From UHGV virus genome UHGV-0167633: DNA of 64,000 bases, one strand, 5' to 3'. The stretch comes from a virus. This document shows positions 13,878 through 56,873 of the stretch, piece by piece. A model generated the notes under the pieces. It had not been told where the DNA came from and made no database searches. It saw only the letters and a program-made list of their open reading frames with translations. The translations under genes were made by a program, and so were the position numbers. Each line of letters opens with the position of its first letter. The first letter of the stretch is position 1.

Positions 13878-14044
13878 GTATTTTTAAGTCGCGAATGCTA
13901 TCTTTTCGCATCATATTGACCTTTTAATCGTTCAGGCTTATAGTTCCGCCGTCGTAGCAAATTCTGCGACCGGGTTTAGCAGCCTGAATGATTGTGCGGA
14001 CAGCCGCAGATATCCGATATTGCGGTATTTTTGTGTCCGTAAAA

Positions 14045-14175
14045 CCGCGTTACGCCCAAATTATGGTGGGGCGTGATGGGGAGGCTTCGGCCTGCTGGTT
14101 TCACAATCGCCAGTCTGCTAACCCCGTCACGTCCTGCCACCTGTTTAGCAGCGGGTAGCAGGTTGTTAAACCTGA
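14045..14175 (+). ncRNA. candidate c4-like antisense regulatory RNA
   Basis: ORF-free, densely hairpinned segment between operator and icd (CGCCC/GGGCG, GGCTTCGGCC tetraloop, CTGCTAA/TTAGCAG, CAGGTT/AACCTG adjacent to icd RBS); position as in P1 c4. Confidence 0.3.
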
Positions 14176-19035: not shown

Positions 19036-19217
19036 TACACCCGCTGCGGTGTGCTTGGGGCTATCAGCTTCAGGTATTACCCGAAAAGCAGATAGAAGAA
19101 AGCCCCAGTAAACATTATGCGTCCCGCACAACGCTTAACATTAACCGGGGCCATACCTATGCTTAGCGTACTTAGATTAATCCTCTCCTCTGTCAAGGAG
19201 CAAGGAATTTTTTACTG

Positions 19218-19850
19218 CTATGCCGCCTTTCCAGTTATGGATTCTGCGACAAGAACAACCCCATGCTTACTTCGATCCGGATGTTCACTCCATATCTCGG
19301 ATTCAGGAATACTTTCCCCGTCATAGCAAACACGTTCGCCGTCAAACGGGTAATACTGAGCGGCATCGGTGTCGAGGATAAACACTTTTAGCTCGGATGA
19401 GCGACGGGCGATGTGTTGCCAAAGAGCTTTTCCACCTTCGTATTGCTCATTATCACTGAGCAAAACAACACCAGCTTTTGAGGCTACGGTTTCGTAAACA
19501 AAAGTGGCTAAACCGACATCCCGGACGATTCCATCAACCACGATACCTTCAATCTGGGCAACATCGCTATCCTCCCAGAACTTCCTTACCAGTACGCCTT
19601 CAAGCTGCGGGCGACGTTGAAGTTCAAGAGTAGCGACAACCTTATGCCGCATATCACCATCGATAACAGAAGGCGCAGCCTCTATTACAGCTGCAAATGG
19701 GGTTTTGGAATCCCATATAACCTGGTAAAGCACACCCTGGATGGTAACGCCGTCCAGGATCGAAAATCGACGAGCGACAGTACCCGGGGAGTACGACATT
19801 GGAATCACAGCCATTTTAGAGTCCCCCTTTAACAGTACAGGCACAAACAT
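19218..19850 (-). CDS. hypothetical protein (own promoter region and upstream terminator)
   Basis: 210-aa ORF (likely start at MAVIPMSY); preceded by AT-rich region and bidirectional hairpin. Confidence 0.4.
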   Translation of the reverse strand: MFVPVLLKGDSKMAVIPMSYSPGTVARRFSILDGVTIQGVLYQVIWDSKTPFAAVIEAAPSVIDGDMRHKVVATLELQRRPQLEGVLVRKFWEDSDVAQIEGIVVDGIVRDVGLATFVYETVASKAGVVLLSDNEQYEGGKALWQHIARRSSELKVFILDTDAAQYYPFDGERVCYDGESIPESEIWSEHPDRSKHGVVLVAESITGKAA

Positions 19851-36637: not shown

Positions 36638-36713
36638 GATGGTGTAGCTCAGCGGTTAGAGCGGTTGACTGTTAATCAACGGGTCGATGGTTCAAATCCA
36701 TCCACCATCGCCA
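36638..36713 (+). tRNA. tRNA-Asn (anticodon GTT)
   Basis: 76 nt; 7-bp acceptor GATGGTG/CACCATC, D-arm TAGCTCAGCGGTTAGAGC, anticodon loop CTGTTAA, T-arm GATGGTTCAAATCCATC, encoded CCA. Confidence 0.85.
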
Positions 36714-36715
36714 AT

Positions 36716-36791
36716 GCCGGTTTAGCTCAGTTGGTAGAGCGCCTGCCTTGTAAGCAGGATGTCAGCGGTTCGAGTCCGTTAATCGGCACCA
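36716..36791 (+). tRNA. tRNA-Thr (anticodon TGT)
   Basis: 76 nt; acceptor GCCGGTT/AATCGGC, anticodon loop CTTGTAA, T-loop GGTTCGAGTCC, encoded CCA. Confidence 0.85.
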
Positions 36792-38584: not shown

Positions 38585-38660
38585 GGCCCTTTAGCTCAGT
38601 GGTTAGAGCTGGCGACTCATAATCGCACGGTCACCGGTTCAAGTCCGGTAGGGGCCACCA
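38585..38660 (+). tRNA. tRNA with CAT anticodon (Ile-lysidine or Met type)
   Basis: 76 nt; acceptor GGCCCTT/AGGGGCC, anticodon loop CTCATAA, T-loop GGTTCAAGTCC, encoded CCA. Confidence 0.8.
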
Positions 38661-53095: not shown

Positions 53096-53307
53096 GCAAG
53101 CCAACCGACGAAGAAATAGTTCGGGTGTTGGAAGAACACGGGCGCTGTATGACTTACGTCGTGACCAACTGGCTTAGGGATAAATATCGCACACTCAAAA
53201 CGGCATACGTTTTGCGTCGTCTAAAGAAACTGGAGTTCGACGGGAAAGTAAAGCGCGTTAACAGTTCTTATATAAGACAAATTTGCTGGGAGGCATCCAG
53301 TGAATAA
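53092..53307 (+). CDS. hypothetical small protein
   Basis: 71-aa ORF; 4-nt overlaps both sides. Confidence 0.3.
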   Translation: MSKPTDEEIVRVLEEHGRCMTYVVTNWLRDKYRTLKTAYVLRRLKKLEFDGKVKRVNSSYIRQICWEASSE

Positions 53308-53944
53308 CCGCTTTTACATGATGTGCTTGCGTGAAACTGTGGGTAATAACGCCTCATTCCATTGCCATAACGGCAATGGTTACAGTTCTGATATCGATCG
53401 CGCTCATGTTTACACGCTGGAAGCAGCCCAAAAAGCCTGGAATTGTGGACGAGATATCGATCAGCCTGTTTGCGCTGATAGCGTGGATGCAATGGCTGTG
53501 TGGCACGTTGATTGCCAGTACATCCCTACAGAAAGCCTGATTGAGTCAGATTGCACTGCGTATGTGGCCTACAAAAAAGGTAGCTGGAACGGCAACGATG
53601 TTTACTGGCTTCAACACGGTGGATTGCCAACAGATGACTTCAGTAAAGCGACCATCTTTAGCGTCGCCAACAAAAACGAACCAGGAATAGTTTGGTTGCC
53701 ATTTTCCATTGCTAATGCAGCAAAGCGCCGGACGTTCAATATCAATAACTTTAACCGCAGAACAATGGTTCAGGGCGCAGGTTTGGTCATGCCTGACTGG
53801 TTGAAAAAGCAAAACAGAAGAAAGAAGTCGCGAAGCGGGAAGGTGCGTTGGAATTGTCCGCATTGCGGAAAAATAACCTGGCAGTACAGCCCATATGATT
53901 TTGAAGGCTGTAGTGATTACAACTGTGAAGGATGGCGAGAATGA
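53300..53944 (+). CDS. Cys-rich hypothetical protein
   Basis: 214-aa ORF; C-terminal CPHCG...C..YNCEGW. Confidence 0.4.
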   Translation: MNNRFYMMCLRETVGNNASFHCHNGNGYSSDIDRAHVYTLEAAQKAWNCGRDIDQPVCADSVDAMAVWHVDCQYIPTESLIESDCTAYVAYKKGSWNGNDVYWLQHGGLPTDDFSKATIFSVANKNEPGIVWLPFSIANAAKRRTFNINNFNRRTMVQGAGLVMPDWLKKQNRRKKSRSGKVRWNCPHCGKITWQYSPYDFEGCSDYNCEGWRE

Positions 53945-54594
53945 CAATTGACTATCAGGTACTGCGTGAGGCGGCAGAAAAGGCAACACCAGACGAATGG
54001 GTCGCATTTATTTCGACGGATACTGGTACTTATGCGGTGCACACGCCCGGTGATGAACGATGTGAAGACGTTATCAAATGGACCGGCTTTGATGGACAGA
54101 AAAATGCAGAGAACAACGCTCGTTATGTTGCCGCGTTCAACCCAAAGGTTGCACTGGAGCTGCTTGGTGAAATTAAGCGCCTGGAGGACACAAATATTGA
54201 TGCTATATGTCGAATTGCAGAGCTTGAGACTAATCTCGCGGCGCTGGTGGCGGAGAACGCTGGGCTGAAACACGCAATGGCCGTAACTCTTGAGCATGTG
54301 TCGGTCACGGATGCAGGGCAGGCCGGAGTTGCTGCAATGATTATCAACGATGCCCTGCACCACAGCGAAACTCCAGCTACCGATGCTTTCCTGTCTGAAG
54401 TGCGGGCGCAGGGGGTGGATGCTGCTATAGAAGCTGCAAAAAATCTGGTGGCCCAAGAATATGAGTATAAGGATTTCAAAGCGGCGCAGAGTGATTGCTG
54501 TATGCACCCTGGTTCAGACCTGGTAGGGAAGGTTGAAATGACTGAGTGGTTAGTTGACTTTGCTGCCCAGCTTCGCAAAGGAGGCAACCAGTGA
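53932..54594 (+). CDS. Ead/Ea22-like protein
   Basis: 220-aa ORF; N-terminus IDYQVLREAAEKATPDEWVAF; coiled coil. Confidence 0.5.
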   Translation: MARMTIDYQVLREAAEKATPDEWVAFISTDTGTYAVHTPGDERCEDVIKWTGFDGQKNAENNARYVAAFNPKVALELLGEIKRLEDTNIDAICRIAELETNLAALVAENAGLKHAMAVTLEHVSVTDAGQAGVAAMIINDALHHSETPATDAFLSEVRAQGVDAAIEAAKNLVAQEYEYKDFKAAQSDCCMHPGSDLVGKVEMTEWLVDFAAQLRKGGNQ

Positions 54595-55109
54595 GCGAAA
54601 TTAATTACCAGGCACTGCGTGAGGCGGCGGAACGTGCAATTCCAGCAATGGAACGCCTGTTAATGTTGCCAGCTGATGATGATTTGTTAAGTGAACAGGA
54701 ACTTAAAGATTACGGTGTGGATATTGATGCGCTCAACGCCTTCAAATTTCTGGCCGGACCAGAAACCGTGCTGGCACTACTGGATGAACGGGAAAGGAAC
54801 CAGCAATACATCAAACGCCGCGACCAGGAGAACGAGGATATTGCGCTAACGGTAGGGAAGCTGCGCGTTGAGCTTGAAGCAGCAAAATCAAAACTCAACG
54901 AGCAGCGTGAATATTACGAGGGAGTAATCGCGGATGGAAGTAAGCGCATAGCAGAACTGGAGGAGCGGGAAATACTGCTCCCGGAACGTAGCAGCATGCT
55001 TCATCGAACAGATTTTCACGATGATTACCAAACGGTAATGGCATACAAAGTTTCTGAAGTCATCGCTGCAATCCGCACCGCAGGCATTCGCATCAAAGGA
55101 GGTGAGTAA
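54591..55109 (+). CDS. Ead/Ea22-like coiled-coil protein
   Basis: 172-aa ORF; N-terminus EINYQALREAAERA. Confidence 0.45.
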   Translation: MSEINYQALREAAERAIPAMERLLMLPADDDLLSEQELKDYGVDIDALNAFKFLAGPETVLALLDERERNQQYIKRRDQENEDIALTVGKLRVELEAAKSKLNEQREYYEGVIADGSKRIAELEEREILLPERSSMLHRTDFHDDYQTVMAYKVSEVIAAIRTAGIRIKGGE

Positions 55110-55285
55110 TGCGTGTGGCATGTATCGGCTTGTTACCGTACCCGACTCGTTTTTGGGCTTCTGCGCTAATTGCAAAGCCGTATGTCCTGATGGCTGACAA
55201 CATCATCCCGGCACCAAAGCGCCGCCATACCGGTATTGCAGCGGCACGACGAGCAGCAAAGAGACGCAGGAGAGCAAAGCGATGA
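55109..55285 (+). CDS. small basic protein (58 aa)
   Basis: ATG overlaps previous stop; Arg-rich C-terminus; below track length cutoff. Confidence 0.3.
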   Translation: MRVACIGLLPYPTRFWASALIAKPYVLMADNIIPAPKRRHTGIAAARRAAKRRRRAKR

Positions 55286-55458
55286 AAAACCGTAAGGCAA
55301 AACGACTTTTTTTACAGCGACCTGTGCGTGTGGTGGAGCTGGTTATTAGCAACCATAAGATAGCGGTACTCCATCCATTTGGTCAGGTGGCTTTTGCCGC
55401 AAAGCGTAAGCCTACTGCGTCACAGAACAGGCGGAAGAAAGGGTACGCTGTAAGATGA
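55282..55458 (+). CDS. small basic protein, MKNRKAK paralog A (58 aa)
   Basis: ATGA overlap; paralogous to next ORF (MKNRKAK N-terminus, KP.A.QNR C-terminus). Confidence 0.35.
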   Translation: MKNRKAKRLFLQRPVRVVELVISNHKIAVLHPFGQVAFAAKRKPTASQNRRKKGYAVR

Positions 55459-55643
55459 AAAACCGTAAAGCAAAGATTCTGTTAGTTCGTAGAAACGCTC
55501 CTGGCGTCTGGCAGTGGGTGAGACTCAGCAACCGACGGATGGGGTTGATGAAATATTACGGGATGATGGATTGTGGTTTTTGCAAAAAGCCCAGCGCGGC
55601 GCAAAACCGCTGGAAAAACCACTTGCGCACTAAAGGAGAGTGA
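55455..55643 (+). CDS. small basic protein, MKNRKAK paralog B (62 aa)
   Basis: ORF-track ORF; ATGA overlap with paralog A. Confidence 0.35.
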   Translation: MKNRKAKILLVRRNAPGVWQWVRLSNRRMGLMKYYGMMDCGFCKKPSAAQNRWKNHLRTKGE

Positions 55644-55644
55644 T

Positions 55645-56160
55645 ATGGCGTTAACACACCGCGAACTCTGTCAGATTGCGTATAAGTTCCTTAAGCGCAA
55701 CGGGTTCAAGGTTTGTTTTCATGACCGCTTTATAGCTGTAACCAGTACCGGAGAACAGCCAGATGCTATGGGATTCAGAAATTCAGCATCATGCCTGATA
55801 GAGGCGAAGTGTTCTCGTGCTGACTTGTTGGCAGATAGAAAAAAGCGTTTTCGTAAAAATCCATCTCTTGGAATGGGCGACTGGCGATTCTTTATTAGTG
55901 AGCCGGGAATTATTTCAGTTGAGGATTTACCTCCCGGCTGGGGATTACTTCACGTTGTTAACGGAAGAGTACGGAAAGTACATGGATGGCCCAAGGGGAA
56001 TTGCTGTTGGGGTAACCCTGAAGATAAACCTTTTATTGGGAATAAGCAGGTTGAATGCGATTACATGTTATCTGCATTAAGGCGCATGGAGTTGAGAGGG
56101 CACCTTAATGAAATATATGACGGTGTAATTGTTAATAAGAAAGAAGGAAACGCGGCATGA
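55645..56160 (+). CDS. PD-(D/E)xK nuclease-like protein (hypothetical)
   Basis: Start ATG 55645 with RBS AAGGAGAG; D...EAK motif (PDAMGF...CLIEAKCSRADL). Confidence 0.4.
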   Translation: MALTHRELCQIAYKFLKRNGFKVCFHDRFIAVTSTGEQPDAMGFRNSASCLIEAKCSRADLLADRKKRFRKNPSLGMGDWRFFISEPGIISVEDLPPGWGLLHVVNGRVRKVHGWPKGNCCWGNPEDKPFIGNKQVECDYMLSALRRMELRGHLNEIYDGVIVNKKEGNAA

Positions 56161-56873
56161 TCACTATTACCAAAGAGCGACTACTGACAATCAAGCAGTG
56201 GCGCGAAACATACGGACCTGGTAGCAACGTTGTACTGCCAGCAGAAGAAGCGGAAGAACTGGCACGAATTGCGCTGGCATCGCTGGAAGCAGATCCAGTT
56301 GCTTATATTTTCAAACATCCGGCCGGGAAATTATTCTGGGCTTTAACGGATGAAAGCAATAAAGAGCAAGCGGACGTTATTCCTGTTTATGCTGCCGCGC
56401 CTGCGTCGGTTGTGCCGGATAATGCATCAGAGCCTCTTGCTTATGCTTACAAAGAGCTTACGCCTGAGATTATGCGCAACCATTTAGCTGTATTCGAGCG
56501 ATATGGAATAGCCCCAAACGATAGCTCTACCACAATTCAGGCACTGCGAATCGCGCTGGATGGCATAGAGCGGAGCGACGCCATGCTTCATGGTGCCGAA
56601 CCTGTAAGCCAAACTTACAAGTTGAACCAGCTATCGGGCAACTCTCCGGCAACTCCGGATGGTTGGATAAGCTGTAGTGAGCGAATGCCGAATACCAAAA
56701 CAGCCGTTCTTGTTGCCGTGGAGTTTGACAGGAAAGGTGACTGGCGAATGAAATGGGCTACTTACATCCCCGGGCATCCTGACGCTAATGATGGGTGGAT
56801 AATTCCTGGTGCGTCGTGGAAACCGTCACACTGGATGCCGCTACCAGAACCGCCGCAGGAGGTGAATCAATGA
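56157..56873 (+). CDS. DUF551-like phage protein
   Basis: 238-aa ORF; C-terminal W-rich segment (CSERMP...WIIPGASWKPSHWMPLPEPP). Confidence 0.45.
   Translation: MITITKERLLTIKQWRETYGPGSNVVLPAEEAEELARIALASLEADPVAYIFKHPAGKLFWALTDESNKEQADVIPVYAAAPASVVPDNASEPLAYAYKELTPEIMRNHLAVFERYGIAPNDSSTTIQALRIALDGIERSDAMLHGAEPVSQTYKLNQLSGNSPATPDGWISCSERMPNTKTAVLVAVEFDRKGDWRMKWATYIPGHPDANDGWIIPGASWKPSHWMPLPEPPQEVNQ

Follow-up and report, generated by a model that had tools for sequence, protein, structure and literature searches.

Three small, very basic accessory genes in the variable part of a lambdoid early-left cassette

Layout, translation signals and coding evidence

The window analyzed here, a 64,000-nucleotide stretch of virus genome UHGV-0167633, is a P1-like phage with a lambdoid ea22-to-DUF551 cassette. 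Three short open reading frames, each beginning with ATG, lie in tandem on its plus strand: ORF1 (55109-55285, 58 aa; RefSeq WP_001261538, PHROG 13831), ORF2 (55282-55458, 58 aa; WP_000797289, PHROG 1380) and ORF3 (55455-55643, 62 aa; WP_000797279, also PHROG 1380). ORF2 is an internal-type and ORF3 a terminal-type member of the MKNRKAK family. Both flanking genes are on the same strand: an Ea22-like gene upstream (54591-55109, 172 aa; Pfam Ead_Ea22, E = 6e-38), and downstream ORF4 (55645-56160, 171 aa), which is outside the small-ORF family and is the commonest of several alternative neighbours. ATGA overlaps join ORF1 to ORF2 (55282-55285) and ORF2 to ORF3 (55455-55458), the TAATG at 55106-55111 places the ORF1 start 1 nt inside the stop of the Ea22-like gene, and ORF4 begins 1 nt past the ORF3 stop. 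The predicted isoelectric points are 12.0, 12.0 and 11.3 for ORF1, ORF2 and ORF3, each product having 15-16 Lys and Arg residues versus 1-2 Asp and Glu. The sequence, the ORF list and these pI values (11.3-12) bear out the initial annotation, which had described three small basic ORFs linked by ATGA overlaps. Stop-start overlap is not peculiar to ORF1-3, because all genes from 53300 to 56873 overlap or abut in the same way.

Two kinds of conserved nucleotide feature mark the gene ends. A 21-nt direct repeat, GATGAAAAACCGTAAGGCAAA, spans the start of ORF2 (55281-55301, plus strand), where it encodes the invariant MKNRKAK arm, and recurs at the start of ORF3 (55454-55474, plus strand); the copies are 95% identical, and the differences between them are synonymous. 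At the other end, a conserved 3' boundary block, AGCGCGGCGCAAAACCGCTGGAAAAACCACTTGCGCACTAAAGGAGAGTGATATGGC (55587-55649, plus strand), encodes SAAQNRWKNHLRTKGE with its stop codon, carries the Shine-Dalgarno (SD) sequence of the next gene and ends at the ATGGC of that gene.

The calculated SD energies are -12.9 kcal/mol for ORF1 (strong), -7.4 kcal/mol for ORF2 (moderate) and -4.5 kcal/mol for ORF3 (weak), the last being equalled at 21% of background positions. From the anatomy of the locus, ORF1-3 would be read from one polycistronic early transcript, with ORF1 presumably translated from its own strong SD. Since the ORF3 SD is weak, translation of ORF3 probably depends on the ATGA overlap and proceeds by termination-reinitiation from ORF2. 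From these overlaps and the weak ORF3 signal we infer that the three genes are translationally coupled.

To evaluate coding potential, we compared unique nucleotide alleles from ∼90 loci. In the called frames pN/pS is 0.24 (ORF1), 0.15 (ORF2) and 0.27 (ORF3); in the other two plus-strand frames it is 1.0-4.5. Polymorphic sites fall in excess at codon position 3 (12 of 22 in ORF1, 11 of 16 in ORF2 and 30 of 57 in ORF3; binomial p = 0.03, 0.004 and 0.002, respectively). Indel variants stay in frame, giving ORF1 lengths of 51, 58 and 60 aa and ORF2/3-family members of 58 to 68 aa, and the ORF list contains no minus-strand ORF spanning ORF1, ORF2 or ORF3. Thus the earlier view that these frames are real rather than noise is upheld by frame conservation and purifying selection in related genomes: ORF1-3 are genuine protein-coding genes, beyond what chance would produce. 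The opposing view, that they are chance open frames or part of a non-coding region such as an RNA element or repeat, could draw on the uneven annotation of the region: 933W calls none of the three in these frames, RCS47 calls ORF2 alone, and ORF1 is missing from one RefSeq genome. Against it stand the frame-specific selection and frame-preserving indels, together with the lack of any Rfam 15 covariance-model match at E ≤ 1 in 54400-56400 and an mRNA fold z-score of +0.57, which also rule out an RNA element or structured mRNA; the sole repeats are the 21-nt ORF starts. We regard it as effectively refuted. A 12-nt inverted repeat (55573-55584 / 55611-55622) was likewise discarded, its left arm lying in the variable body and being missing from other subtypes.

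In a pair of ORF3 subtypes, the N-terminal 10 codons differ by 3 synonymous changes and no non-synonymous one, and the body has dN/dS ∼0.19, so diversifying selection is not indicated between subtypes; among very close alleles of K63, an ORF3-type subtype 63 aa long, the values for the body scatter around 1, with just 1-9 substitutions to count. Frameshifted alleles are also in circulation. P0054 and P0060 carry a compensated double frameshift that scrambles the middle and leaves the ends in frame, and the ORF1 alleles P0163, P0164 and P0168, found on up to 95 contigs, have the tail out of frame, indicating that these genes are dispensable and often decaying.

Gene families and modular arrangement

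The initial annotation had proposed that ORF2 and ORF3 are paralogs and had suggested a homology search for the MKNRKAK family. The paralogy is confirmed: the two proteins are 37% identical over 54 aa (BLASTP, E = 5e-10), share the MKNRKAK start and a KP(T/S)A(S/A)QNR motif, and both match the PHROG 1380 profile in hmmscan (ORF2, E = 6.5e-23 over positions 1-58 of 62; ORF3, E = 1e-40 over 1-62 of 62). The motifs of that family, x-N-R-K-A-K-x-L, S-N-(R/H)-(R/K) and (S/T)-A-(A/S)-Q-N-R-(W/R)-K, are all present in both. Among 31 diverse members, N3, R4 and R52 are invariant, and conservation is 90% or higher at K5, A6, L9, S25, N26, A48, Q50 and N51. Distant members occur in unrelated contexts, lack the junction sequences and have a compatible strand pattern; two of them in other genomic slots (L089 and L093) retain N-R, SNRR and SA(A/R)QNR by way of synonymous codon changes. 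The family is small, with 49 representatives among 1.84 billion proteins, and a scan of GTDB species representatives gave no confirmed relatives. ORF2 and ORF3 are therefore true, old paralogs of one narrow enterobacterial-phage family, as judged by sequence comparison. They are not a recent local duplication, because synonymous sites in their bodies have reached saturation between subtypes; the two units look as though they were juxtaposed by recombination at conserved junctions.

ORF1 is a separate family, unrelated to ORF2/3 at the sequence level. It matches the PHROG 13831 profile over its whole length (hmmscan, E = 1.1e-41, positions 1-58 of 58), and the possibility that it is a third, divergent paralog was rejected by an hhalign probability of 0.1%. 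Its 84 homolog clusters have a conserved tail, PAPKRRHTGIAAARRAAK(K/R)RRR(A/T)KR, and Escherichia is the only genus among the sources that give a name. Apparent fusions do not look like domain architectures: PHROG 9263, in which ORF3 is joined to ORF4, looks like a recombination or frameshift product, and P0035, P0080, P0090 and P0095 have the same appearance.

All three ORFs were already catalogued in RefSeq as hypothetical proteins, some of the sequences being identical, and PGAP annotates them at the homologous position of the E. coli TUM1880 genome. These entries and the two PHROGs are the same families as ours, with nothing that differs, so the genes are not new; the entries carry no function, and membership says only that the genes are catalogued. 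We found no mention of ORF1, ORF2 or ORF3 in the literature, the exo-xis studies consulted included. Other records handle the region inconsistently (in 933W and VT2-Sakai, for example, the frame called here is 155 aa long and over-extended), and a tidier annotation is one outcome of this work; otherwise very little changes. ORF1-3 are real yet ordinary small, very basic phage accessory genes.

Their position in related genomes is consistent. In TUM1880 the order is Rad52-like, ssb, anti-RecBCD, ..., ea22-like, ORF1, ORF2, ORF3, ..., DUF551, ..., xis, int, and the layouts of 933W, VT2-Sakai and Bas106 agree with it: in lambdoid prophages and Stx phages the cassette sits between ea22 and xis/int, with all genes co-oriented. 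It is present in 602 of 5,426 complete E. coli genomes, with Shiga-toxin prophages and P1-like phage-plasmids among the carriers. ORF1-3 are accessory genes of the variable part of the lambdoid early-left (exo-xis or ea) cassette.

To describe this variability, we denote the ORF2-type unit K58, the ORF3-type unit K62 and ORF1 O1. Units are found in every combination in Stx phages (933W, VT2-Sakai) and in phiV10-like, 9NA-like and P1-like phages. The listed architectures are K58-K62 (20 cases), O1-K58-K62 (19), O1(51 aa)-K62 (17), K62 alone (13) and O1-K62 (13), and adjacent units in them are joined by a 4-nt (ATGA) overlap every time. Whenever an ORF2-type unit is present, another family unit follows, and the ORF2 tail, which ends in SQNRRKKGYAVR and a stop codon, overlaps the ATG of that next unit; the type of tail tracks array position rather than body type.

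The sequences at these boundaries are far more constant than what lies on either side. The proteins upstream have many unrelated bodies and one common ending, AGIRIKGGE, for which the DNA is GGCATTCGCATCAAAGGAGGTGAGTAATG; in the Ea22-like gene these last codons are a conserved junction that carries the ORF1 SD; in general, the C-terminal KGE or GGE codons with their stop are the SD of the next gene. Beyond the 3' boundary block lies one of at least five or six downstream genes that are unrelated to one another, ORF4 being the one present at 42 of 88 loci. Mean pairwise nucleotide identity reaches 0.89-1.00 in the 3' block but is 0.57-0.86 in the gene bodies and 0.3-0.5 immediately outside. Synonymous divergence (pS) agrees, at 0.09 in the block versus 0.71 in the body. 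More than 100 Stx phages match the 3' boundary block alone (blastn). No conserved partner gene was found for the family, close relatives having the downstream genes just described and distant members having other neighbours. Thus the three units behave as interchangeable cassettes, present singly or combined, with almost invariant boundaries and differing bodies and neighbours. Such a pattern fits homologous recombination at conserved linker sequences and is, in its sequence features, classic lambdoid mosaicism. The candidate sites of exchange are the MKNRKAK start, the end formed by SAAQNRWKNHLRTKGE, its stop, the SD and ATGGC, and the end formed by AGIRIKGGE, its stop and the SD.

Possible roles of the products

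The initial annotation had left the function unassigned, and our searches agree: neither the single proteins nor a 31-member profile matched a family of known function in Pfam, NCBIfam, PADLOC or PDB sequences, and the ORF2/3 family gave no significant fold match. A C2H2 zinc finger in ORF3 (Pfam zf-C2H2_jaz), an idea prompted by its CxxC...H pattern, was rejected because it scored 13.3 bits against a gathering cut-off of 22.6 and its ligands are not conserved: only one His follows the CxxC, and the Cys residues are missing from ORF2 and most family members. Kinship to the lambda Int arm-binding domain was rejected on the hhalign result.

Once the alignment is deep enough, AF2 models of the ORF2/3 family predict a confident compact fold in which an invariant basic arm at the N terminus is followed by three beta strands and a C-terminal SAAQNRWK helix. 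In the ORF3 model (pLDDT 80) the strands span residues 20-23, 28-32 and 38-43 and the helix residues 48-60, and the conserved polar and basic motifs sit in the arm, sheet and helix. ORF1 has a moderately hydrophobic N-terminal half with proline and an Arg-rich C-terminal tail (KRRHTGIAAARRAAKRRRRAKR). High basic charge, as we note for all three products, is by itself no proof of nucleic-acid binding.

The products of ORF1-3 may be small nucleic-acid-binding proteins, the likeliest of the roles considered but a tentative suggestion that we hold at less than even confidence. ORF2 and ORF3 would bind through the flexible basic arm (NRKAK), the three-stranded sheet with its SN(R/H)(R/K) motif and the helix with QNR(W/R)K, as the models suggest, and ORF1 would contribute its arginine-rich tail. 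Their targets would be phage or host DNA or RNA at an early stage of infection or induction, and they would resemble in this the other small exo-xis proteins, which modulate the lysis-lysogeny decision. A bolder version, which we think unlikely to hold, is that the MKNRKAK family is an undescribed minimal nucleic-acid-binding domain, built from the basic arm, the three-stranded sheet and a QNR(W/R)K recognition helix, whose hypervariable sheet sets target specificity. If it were true, each member of a tandem pair such as ORF2-ORF3 would have its own DNA or RNA site. The paralogs would be early regulators, or blockers of host defence or nucleases, that can be swapped among Stx, P22-like and P1-like phages, and the conserved gene ends would let phages trade specificities via homologous recombination.

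Three other accounts of the products have to be weighed. That they are protein-binding host-takeover or anti-defence factors, as many small genes of early phage accessory regions encode, with a hypervariable core tracking a variable host or defence target instead of nucleic acid, is a lesser and rather unlikely possibility. It would suit genes in an accessory hotspot beside anti-RecBCD, Erf/Rad52, SSB and ea22 in lambdoid prophages, with highly variable bodies between conserved ends, whose presence, absence and copy number differ among otherwise similar phages; some close alleles, whose body dN/dS is about 1 or higher, point the same way, albeit on small counts. However, there is no match to any characterised family or, for ORF1-4, to any PADLOC model at E ≤ 1, the between-subtype body dN/dS is low, and the invariant N, R, K, Q and S residues are exposed on the arm and the helix, as is more usual for residues that contact nucleic acid. 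The same low dN/dS, with whole-ORF pN/pS of 0.15-0.27, speaks against a quite improbable account in which the products have little or no function and the ORFs persist mainly as translated spacers that hold ribosomes on the polycistronic mRNA and relay coupling to the downstream gene, their ends serving as linkers and ribosome-binding sites. Distant members that lack the junctions yet retain the motifs and strand pattern, and the confident compact fold, also tell against it, even though the nucleotide invariance of the ends exceeds any amino-acid requirement (the pS contrast given above), the KGE or GGE codons are simply the next gene's SD, compensated frameshifts scramble the middle while keeping the ends in frame, and units are freely lost. 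Finally, ORF1 might be a small Kil-like or type-I-toxin-like peptide that acts on membranes or is toxic, its hydrophobic N-terminal half sitting in the membrane and its poly-basic tail in the cytoplasm. Lambdoid early-left regions encode small host-killing proteins, and the N-terminal 34 residues of ORF1 are largely apolar (MRVACIGLLPYPTRFWASALIAKPYVLMADNIIP) before the Arg/Lys tail begins. But Pro, Arg, Lys and Asp interrupt the apolar stretch, overall GRAVY is -0.22, and inspection by eye revealed no continuous hydrophobic stretch of ∼20 residues and no signal-peptide or lipobox pattern, which makes this account very improbable.

Taken as a whole, we consider the preferred reading probable: ORF1-3 are accessory genes of an exchangeable early cassette, ORF2 and ORF3 being paralogs, and their translation is probably coupled; nucleic-acid binding by the products is its least certain part, at the lower confidence given above.

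Comparison with known systems

The predicted fold of the ORF2/3 family can be compared with beta3-alpha domains (AP2/ERF and the lambda Int N-terminal arm-binding domain) and with the homeodomain combination of an N-terminal arm and a QNRR helix; the likeness is one of layout, and no significant structural or profile similarity to AP2- or integrase-arm-type beta3-alpha domains was found. In ORF1, the segment KRRHTGIAAARRAAKRRRRAKR resembles the arginine-rich-motif RNA-binding peptides of lambda/P22 N and HK022 Nun in being Arg- and Ala-rich, helix-prone and early-left. This resemblance is one of composition only: ORF1 has no sequence homology to these peptides and lacks the rest of N or Nun.

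By position, the closest counterparts are the exo-xis proteins of lambda and Stx phages (Ea8.5, Orf55, Orf60a, Orf61, Orf63, Orf73 and Ea22), which are of the same small early type and belong to the same operon, in the early-left interval that runs from ea22 to xis/int in lambdoid prophages; none has detectable sequence similarity to ORF1-3. According to PMC8614690, small proteins encoded here influence lysogenisation and induction; these lysis-lysogeny phenotypes belong to genes other than ORF1-3. If the ORF1-3 products influenced prophage induction as other exo-xis proteins do, they would bear on the biology of Stx phages.

The boundaries themselves are best compared with the linkers of lambdoid phages, an established model according to the passage of PMC3233612 that cites Susskind & Botstein 1978 and Clark et al. 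2001; PMC2839356 also describes linker sequences in lambdoid phages. As in that model, and in HK620 (Clark et al. 2001), short near-identical blocks lie beside unrelated genes, and the breakpoints here fall exactly at gene starts and ends, matching the lambdoid description. Unlike those of the lambdoid model, the linkers of this locus lie inside coding sequence: in the small ORFs they take up 7-9 codons at the start and 16-18 at the end, and in the Ea22-like genes the final 9. They also double as SD and stop-start signals. Recombination at them is deduced from the pattern. The locus thus provides a clean case of lambdoid mosaicism, backed by numbers: its linkers coincide with the opening and closing codons of small genes, which also serve as ribosome-binding and stop-start signals.

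Three coding sequences and their probable expression

The initial annotation described three small basic ORFs joined by ATGA overlaps, and this description is accurate: ORF1 (55109-55285), ORF2 (55282-55458) and ORF3 (55455-55643), all on the + strand, have ATG starts and 58, 58 and 62 codons, respectively, with ATGA overlaps at both the ORF1/ORF2 and the ORF2/ORF3 junction. Their products have pI values of 12.0, 12.0 and 11.3, each with 15-16 Lys+Arg versus 1-2 Asp+Glu residues. The upstream gene's stop codon, TAA, shares its last base with the ORF1 ATG (TAATG), and ORF4 (55645-56160, + strand; 171 aa, pI 9.3) starts one base past the ORF3 TGA; such overlap or abutment is common to every gene at 53300-56873 and is not peculiar to ORF1-ORF3.

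For each ORF, the distinct nucleotide alleles at ∼90 related loci (phage, E. coli and IMG/VR records) were compared with one another. In the called frame, pN/pS is 0.24 for ORF1, 0.15 for ORF2 and 0.27 for ORF3, versus 2.24 and 1.60, 2.40 and 4.45, and 1.01 and 1.60 in the other two + frames; the pairwise counts are non-independent, since the alleles are related, but the direction and frame-specificity of the signal are still clear. Codon position 3 holds 12 of the 22 polymorphic sites in ORF1 (binomial p 0.03), 11 of 16 in ORF2 (p 0.004) and 30 of 57 in ORF3 (p 0.002), and the frame is kept in length variants (ORF1, 51, 58 or 60 aa; the MKNRKAK family of ORF2 and ORF3, 58-68 aa). ORF1, ORF2 and ORF3 are real coding sequences and not noise, in agreement with the initial annotation. 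Also in favour of coding, no minus-strand ORF spans any of them, the region has no Rfam match at E≤1, and a 600-nt transcript folds no better than its shuffles (z = +0.57).

Some alleles are disrupted. In two ORF3 alleles (P0054 and P0060) the middle is read in the alternative frame (GETQQPTDGV...) before the conserved C-terminus returns in frame, a compensated double frameshift; in three ORF1 alleles (P0163, P0164 and P0168), one of them present on 95 contigs, the C-terminal tail is out of frame and runs into the next gene. These alleles show that the phages can do without the genes, which are often in decay.

The SD-anti-SD pairing energies are -12.9 kcal/mol for ORF1, -7.4 for ORF2, -4.5 for ORF3 and -9.1 for ORF4, with 0.1%, 4%, 21% and 2% of background positions at least as strong. 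With ORF2 ahead of it, ORF3 would, given its energy, most plausibly rely on termination-reinitiation at their ATGA overlap; placed directly after ORF1, it inherits a better AGGAGA site. Inside ORF1-ORF3 the + strand has no predicted sigma-70-like promoter or terminator, consistent with a single polycistronic transcript that would carry all three.

Mosaic units with conserved ends

ORF2 and ORF3 had also been taken for duplicated genes, and their paralogy stands: both have the MKNRKAK start and KP(T/S)A(S/A)QNR near the C-terminus, they are 37% identical across 54 residues (BLASTP, E = 5e-10), and both belong to PHROG 1380 (E = 6.5e-23 and 1e-40, respectively). ORF1 belongs to PHROG 13831 (E = 1.1e-41) and is ruled out as a third paralog (hhalign probability 0.1%).

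The ORF1 unit (O1), the ORF2 type (K58) and the ORF3 type (K62) are found in every combination across loci, with a few other subtypes: K58-K62 (20 loci), O1-K58-K62 (19), O1(51 aa)-K62 (17), K62 alone (13) and O1-K62 (13), all adjacent units being joined by a 4-nt ATGA overlap. One locus (IMGVR_UViG_2537562191_000021) carries the cassette twice, 569 nt apart, as O1-K58-K62 and then O1-K62, which may be a duplication of the small-ORF block or an assembly artefact.

The most instructive aspect of these loci is a very clean linker-type mosaicism at the ends of the small genes. At the homologous junction in L001-L088 (window 55083-55111), the upstream gene ends in AGIRIKGGE-stop or MLQGKGGE-stop. 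The former, encoded by GGCATTCGCATCAAAGGAGGTGAGTAATG, is a common end of upstream proteins with many unrelated bodies; its nucleotide block is nearly identical across loci, holds the SD for the next gene, and is a coding 'linker' common to different genes, including Ea22-like ones. At the other side, the last MKNRKAK-family unit always ends in ...ACTAAAGGAGAGTGATATGGC, and the gene after it is one of at least five or six that are unrelated. The type of C-terminal tail is set by array position, not by body type: a phiV10-like locus (L005) has an ORF3-like body with the ORF2 tail SASQNRRKKGYAVR and stop. Aligning seven terminal units from various subtypes gives a mean pairwise nucleotide identity of 0.87 in the first ∼20 coding nt, 0.57-0.86 in the body, 0.89-1.00 in the last ∼60 nt and 0.3-0.5 just outside; synonymous divergence (pS) of the window ORF3 from the Bas106 subtype drops from 0.71 in the body to 0.09 over the last 18 codons. 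This is the pattern that would be expected from module exchange by homologous recombination at boundary or 'linker' sequences, a model long established in lambdoid phages (Susskind & Botstein 1978; Clark et al. 2001; in passages of PMC3233612 and PMC2839356). Recombinant junctions that delete ORF1 are directly visible in three loci (L009, L027 and L097). The exchange pattern argues that ORF2 and ORF3 are old paralogs set side by side, and not the products of a recent local duplication.

A 12-nt inverted repeat lies just upstream of the ORF4 SD (55573-55584 and 55611-55622; GTGGTTTTTGCA and TGGAAAAACCAC); it is probably fortuitous, since its left arm falls within the variable body and other subtypes lack that arm. 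Farther downstream, the DUF551 genes of the window (56157-56873) and of L005, L008 and L096 have a common N-terminal segment, M(T/I)TITKERLLTI(K/R/Q)(Q/H)WRETYGPGSNVVLPAEEAEELARIALASLEA(E/D)PVA..., unrelated middle parts and, in only some, a C-terminal DUF551 domain. This is another mosaic gene of the same cassette.

Protein-level constraint and possible function

The conserved ends are not merely DNA linkers. Among ORF3 subtypes the N-terminal ten codons show 3 synonymous and 0 non-synonymous changes, the MKNRKAK codons of ORF2 and ORF3 differ only synonymously, and two distant members (L089, adjoining a resolvase, and L093, preceding a terminase), which have neither the MKNRKAK start nor the E. 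coli-type 3' block, keep N-R, SNRR and SA(A/R)QNR by different codons. A third distant member (L092) lies between replication and nin genes. Three residues (N3, R4 and R52) never vary across 31 diverse members, and eight more (K5, A6, L9, S25, N26, A48, Q50 and N51) are ≥90% conserved. Small in size and narrow in range, the family counts 49 representatives, at 50% identity, in a set of 1.84 billion proteins; the sources that name an organism give Escherichia or Salmonella, and the GTDB species representatives yielded no confirmed relative.

The AlphaFold2 model reaches a mean pLDDT of 80 with a 31-sequence alignment (just 64 with 14 sequences), and shows a basic N-terminal arm without structure (1-19), three strands (20-23, 28-32, 38-43) and a helix (48-60) that bears QNRWKNH. 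Foldseek found no relative of the model in the PDB, and a BFVD search none except a MKNRKAK family member; profile searches of PDB sequences and Pfam were empty as well, with a cut-off as loose as E≤10 for all 31 members. No relationship to the lambda Int arm-binding domain emerged on comparison, and a weak zinc-finger match in ORF3 (zf-C2H2_jaz) is below threshold, with Cys residues that are not conserved.

The extreme basic charge, the flexible basic arm, the invariant Asn/Arg/Gln/Ser/Lys positions in arm, sheet and helix, and, in ORF1, the Arg-rich, Ala-rich C-terminal tail lead us to suggest, tentatively, that the products are small early nucleic-acid-binding proteins. The main rival, that they bind a host or defence protein, we regard as rather unlikely. 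It is in turn more likely than a role chiefly as 'relay/linker', in which the proteins themselves would do little; the selection data count against this reading, which we consider improbable. That the products tune lysis-lysogeny or host takeover is suggested only by likeness to the other exo-xis proteins.

ORF4 is intact in the window, but two E. coli chromosomes have it annotated at the corresponding site as a pseudogene with a frameshift. It has homologues in >320 clusters from Enterobacterales phages and prophages (Klebsiella, Serratia, Morganella, Providencia, Pectobacterium), no match in Pfam, NCBIfam, PADLOC or PDB, a PD...E-x-K motif seen by eye (QPDAMGF...LIEAKCSR) and a weak match to PHROG 5429 'DNA repair protein' (E = 2e-3); it may represent an unassigned PD-(D/E)XK-type nuclease family.

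Annotation and the lambdoid setting

All three products are already RefSeq hypothetical proteins (WP_001261538, WP_000797289 and WP_000797279 for ORF1, ORF2 and ORF3). The 535-nt segment is matched in 602 of 5,426 complete E. coli genomes (418 chromosomal and 297 plasmid places), at ≥80% of its length in 126. Individual records vary: TUM1880 annotates all three, DSM 103246 omits ORF1, RCS47 has ORF2 only, and 933W calls none in these frames. VT2-Sakai orf8 (L094; PHROG 12350, 155 aa), a frame also present in 933W (L004, 1374-1841), is the ORF3 frame extended upstream over ORF1 in another frame than ORF1; since purifying selection favours the short ORF1 and ORF3 reading, it is probably an over-extended annotation. 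PHROG 9263 (230 aa) is ORF3 fused to ORF4.

The window is P1-like, a phage or a phage-plasmid: its pmgS, its ppp and further P1 genes are ∼98% identical to those of P1, P7, RCS47 and SJ46. This assignment is confirmed by Rfam matches (13938-14144, 19049-19222, 36638-36788 and 38585-38657) to three tRNA genes, a sok antitoxin RNA (hok/sok-type addiction module) and the P1 immunity C4 antisense RNA with its a1/b1 targets. The cassette inside it, in order an Ead/Ea22-family gene (Pfam E = 6e-38), ORF1, ORF2, ORF3, ORF4 and the DUF551 gene, is typical of the lambdoid early-left region. The initial observation was correct and its interpretation largely so: ORF1-ORF3 are ordinary small accessory genes, catalogued before and functionally uncharacterised, of a phage region well known to be hypervariable. 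Lambdoid prophages carry the same block with the recombination and anti-RecBCD genes on one side and xis/int on the other, which places it past ea22 in the variable stretch of exo-xis.
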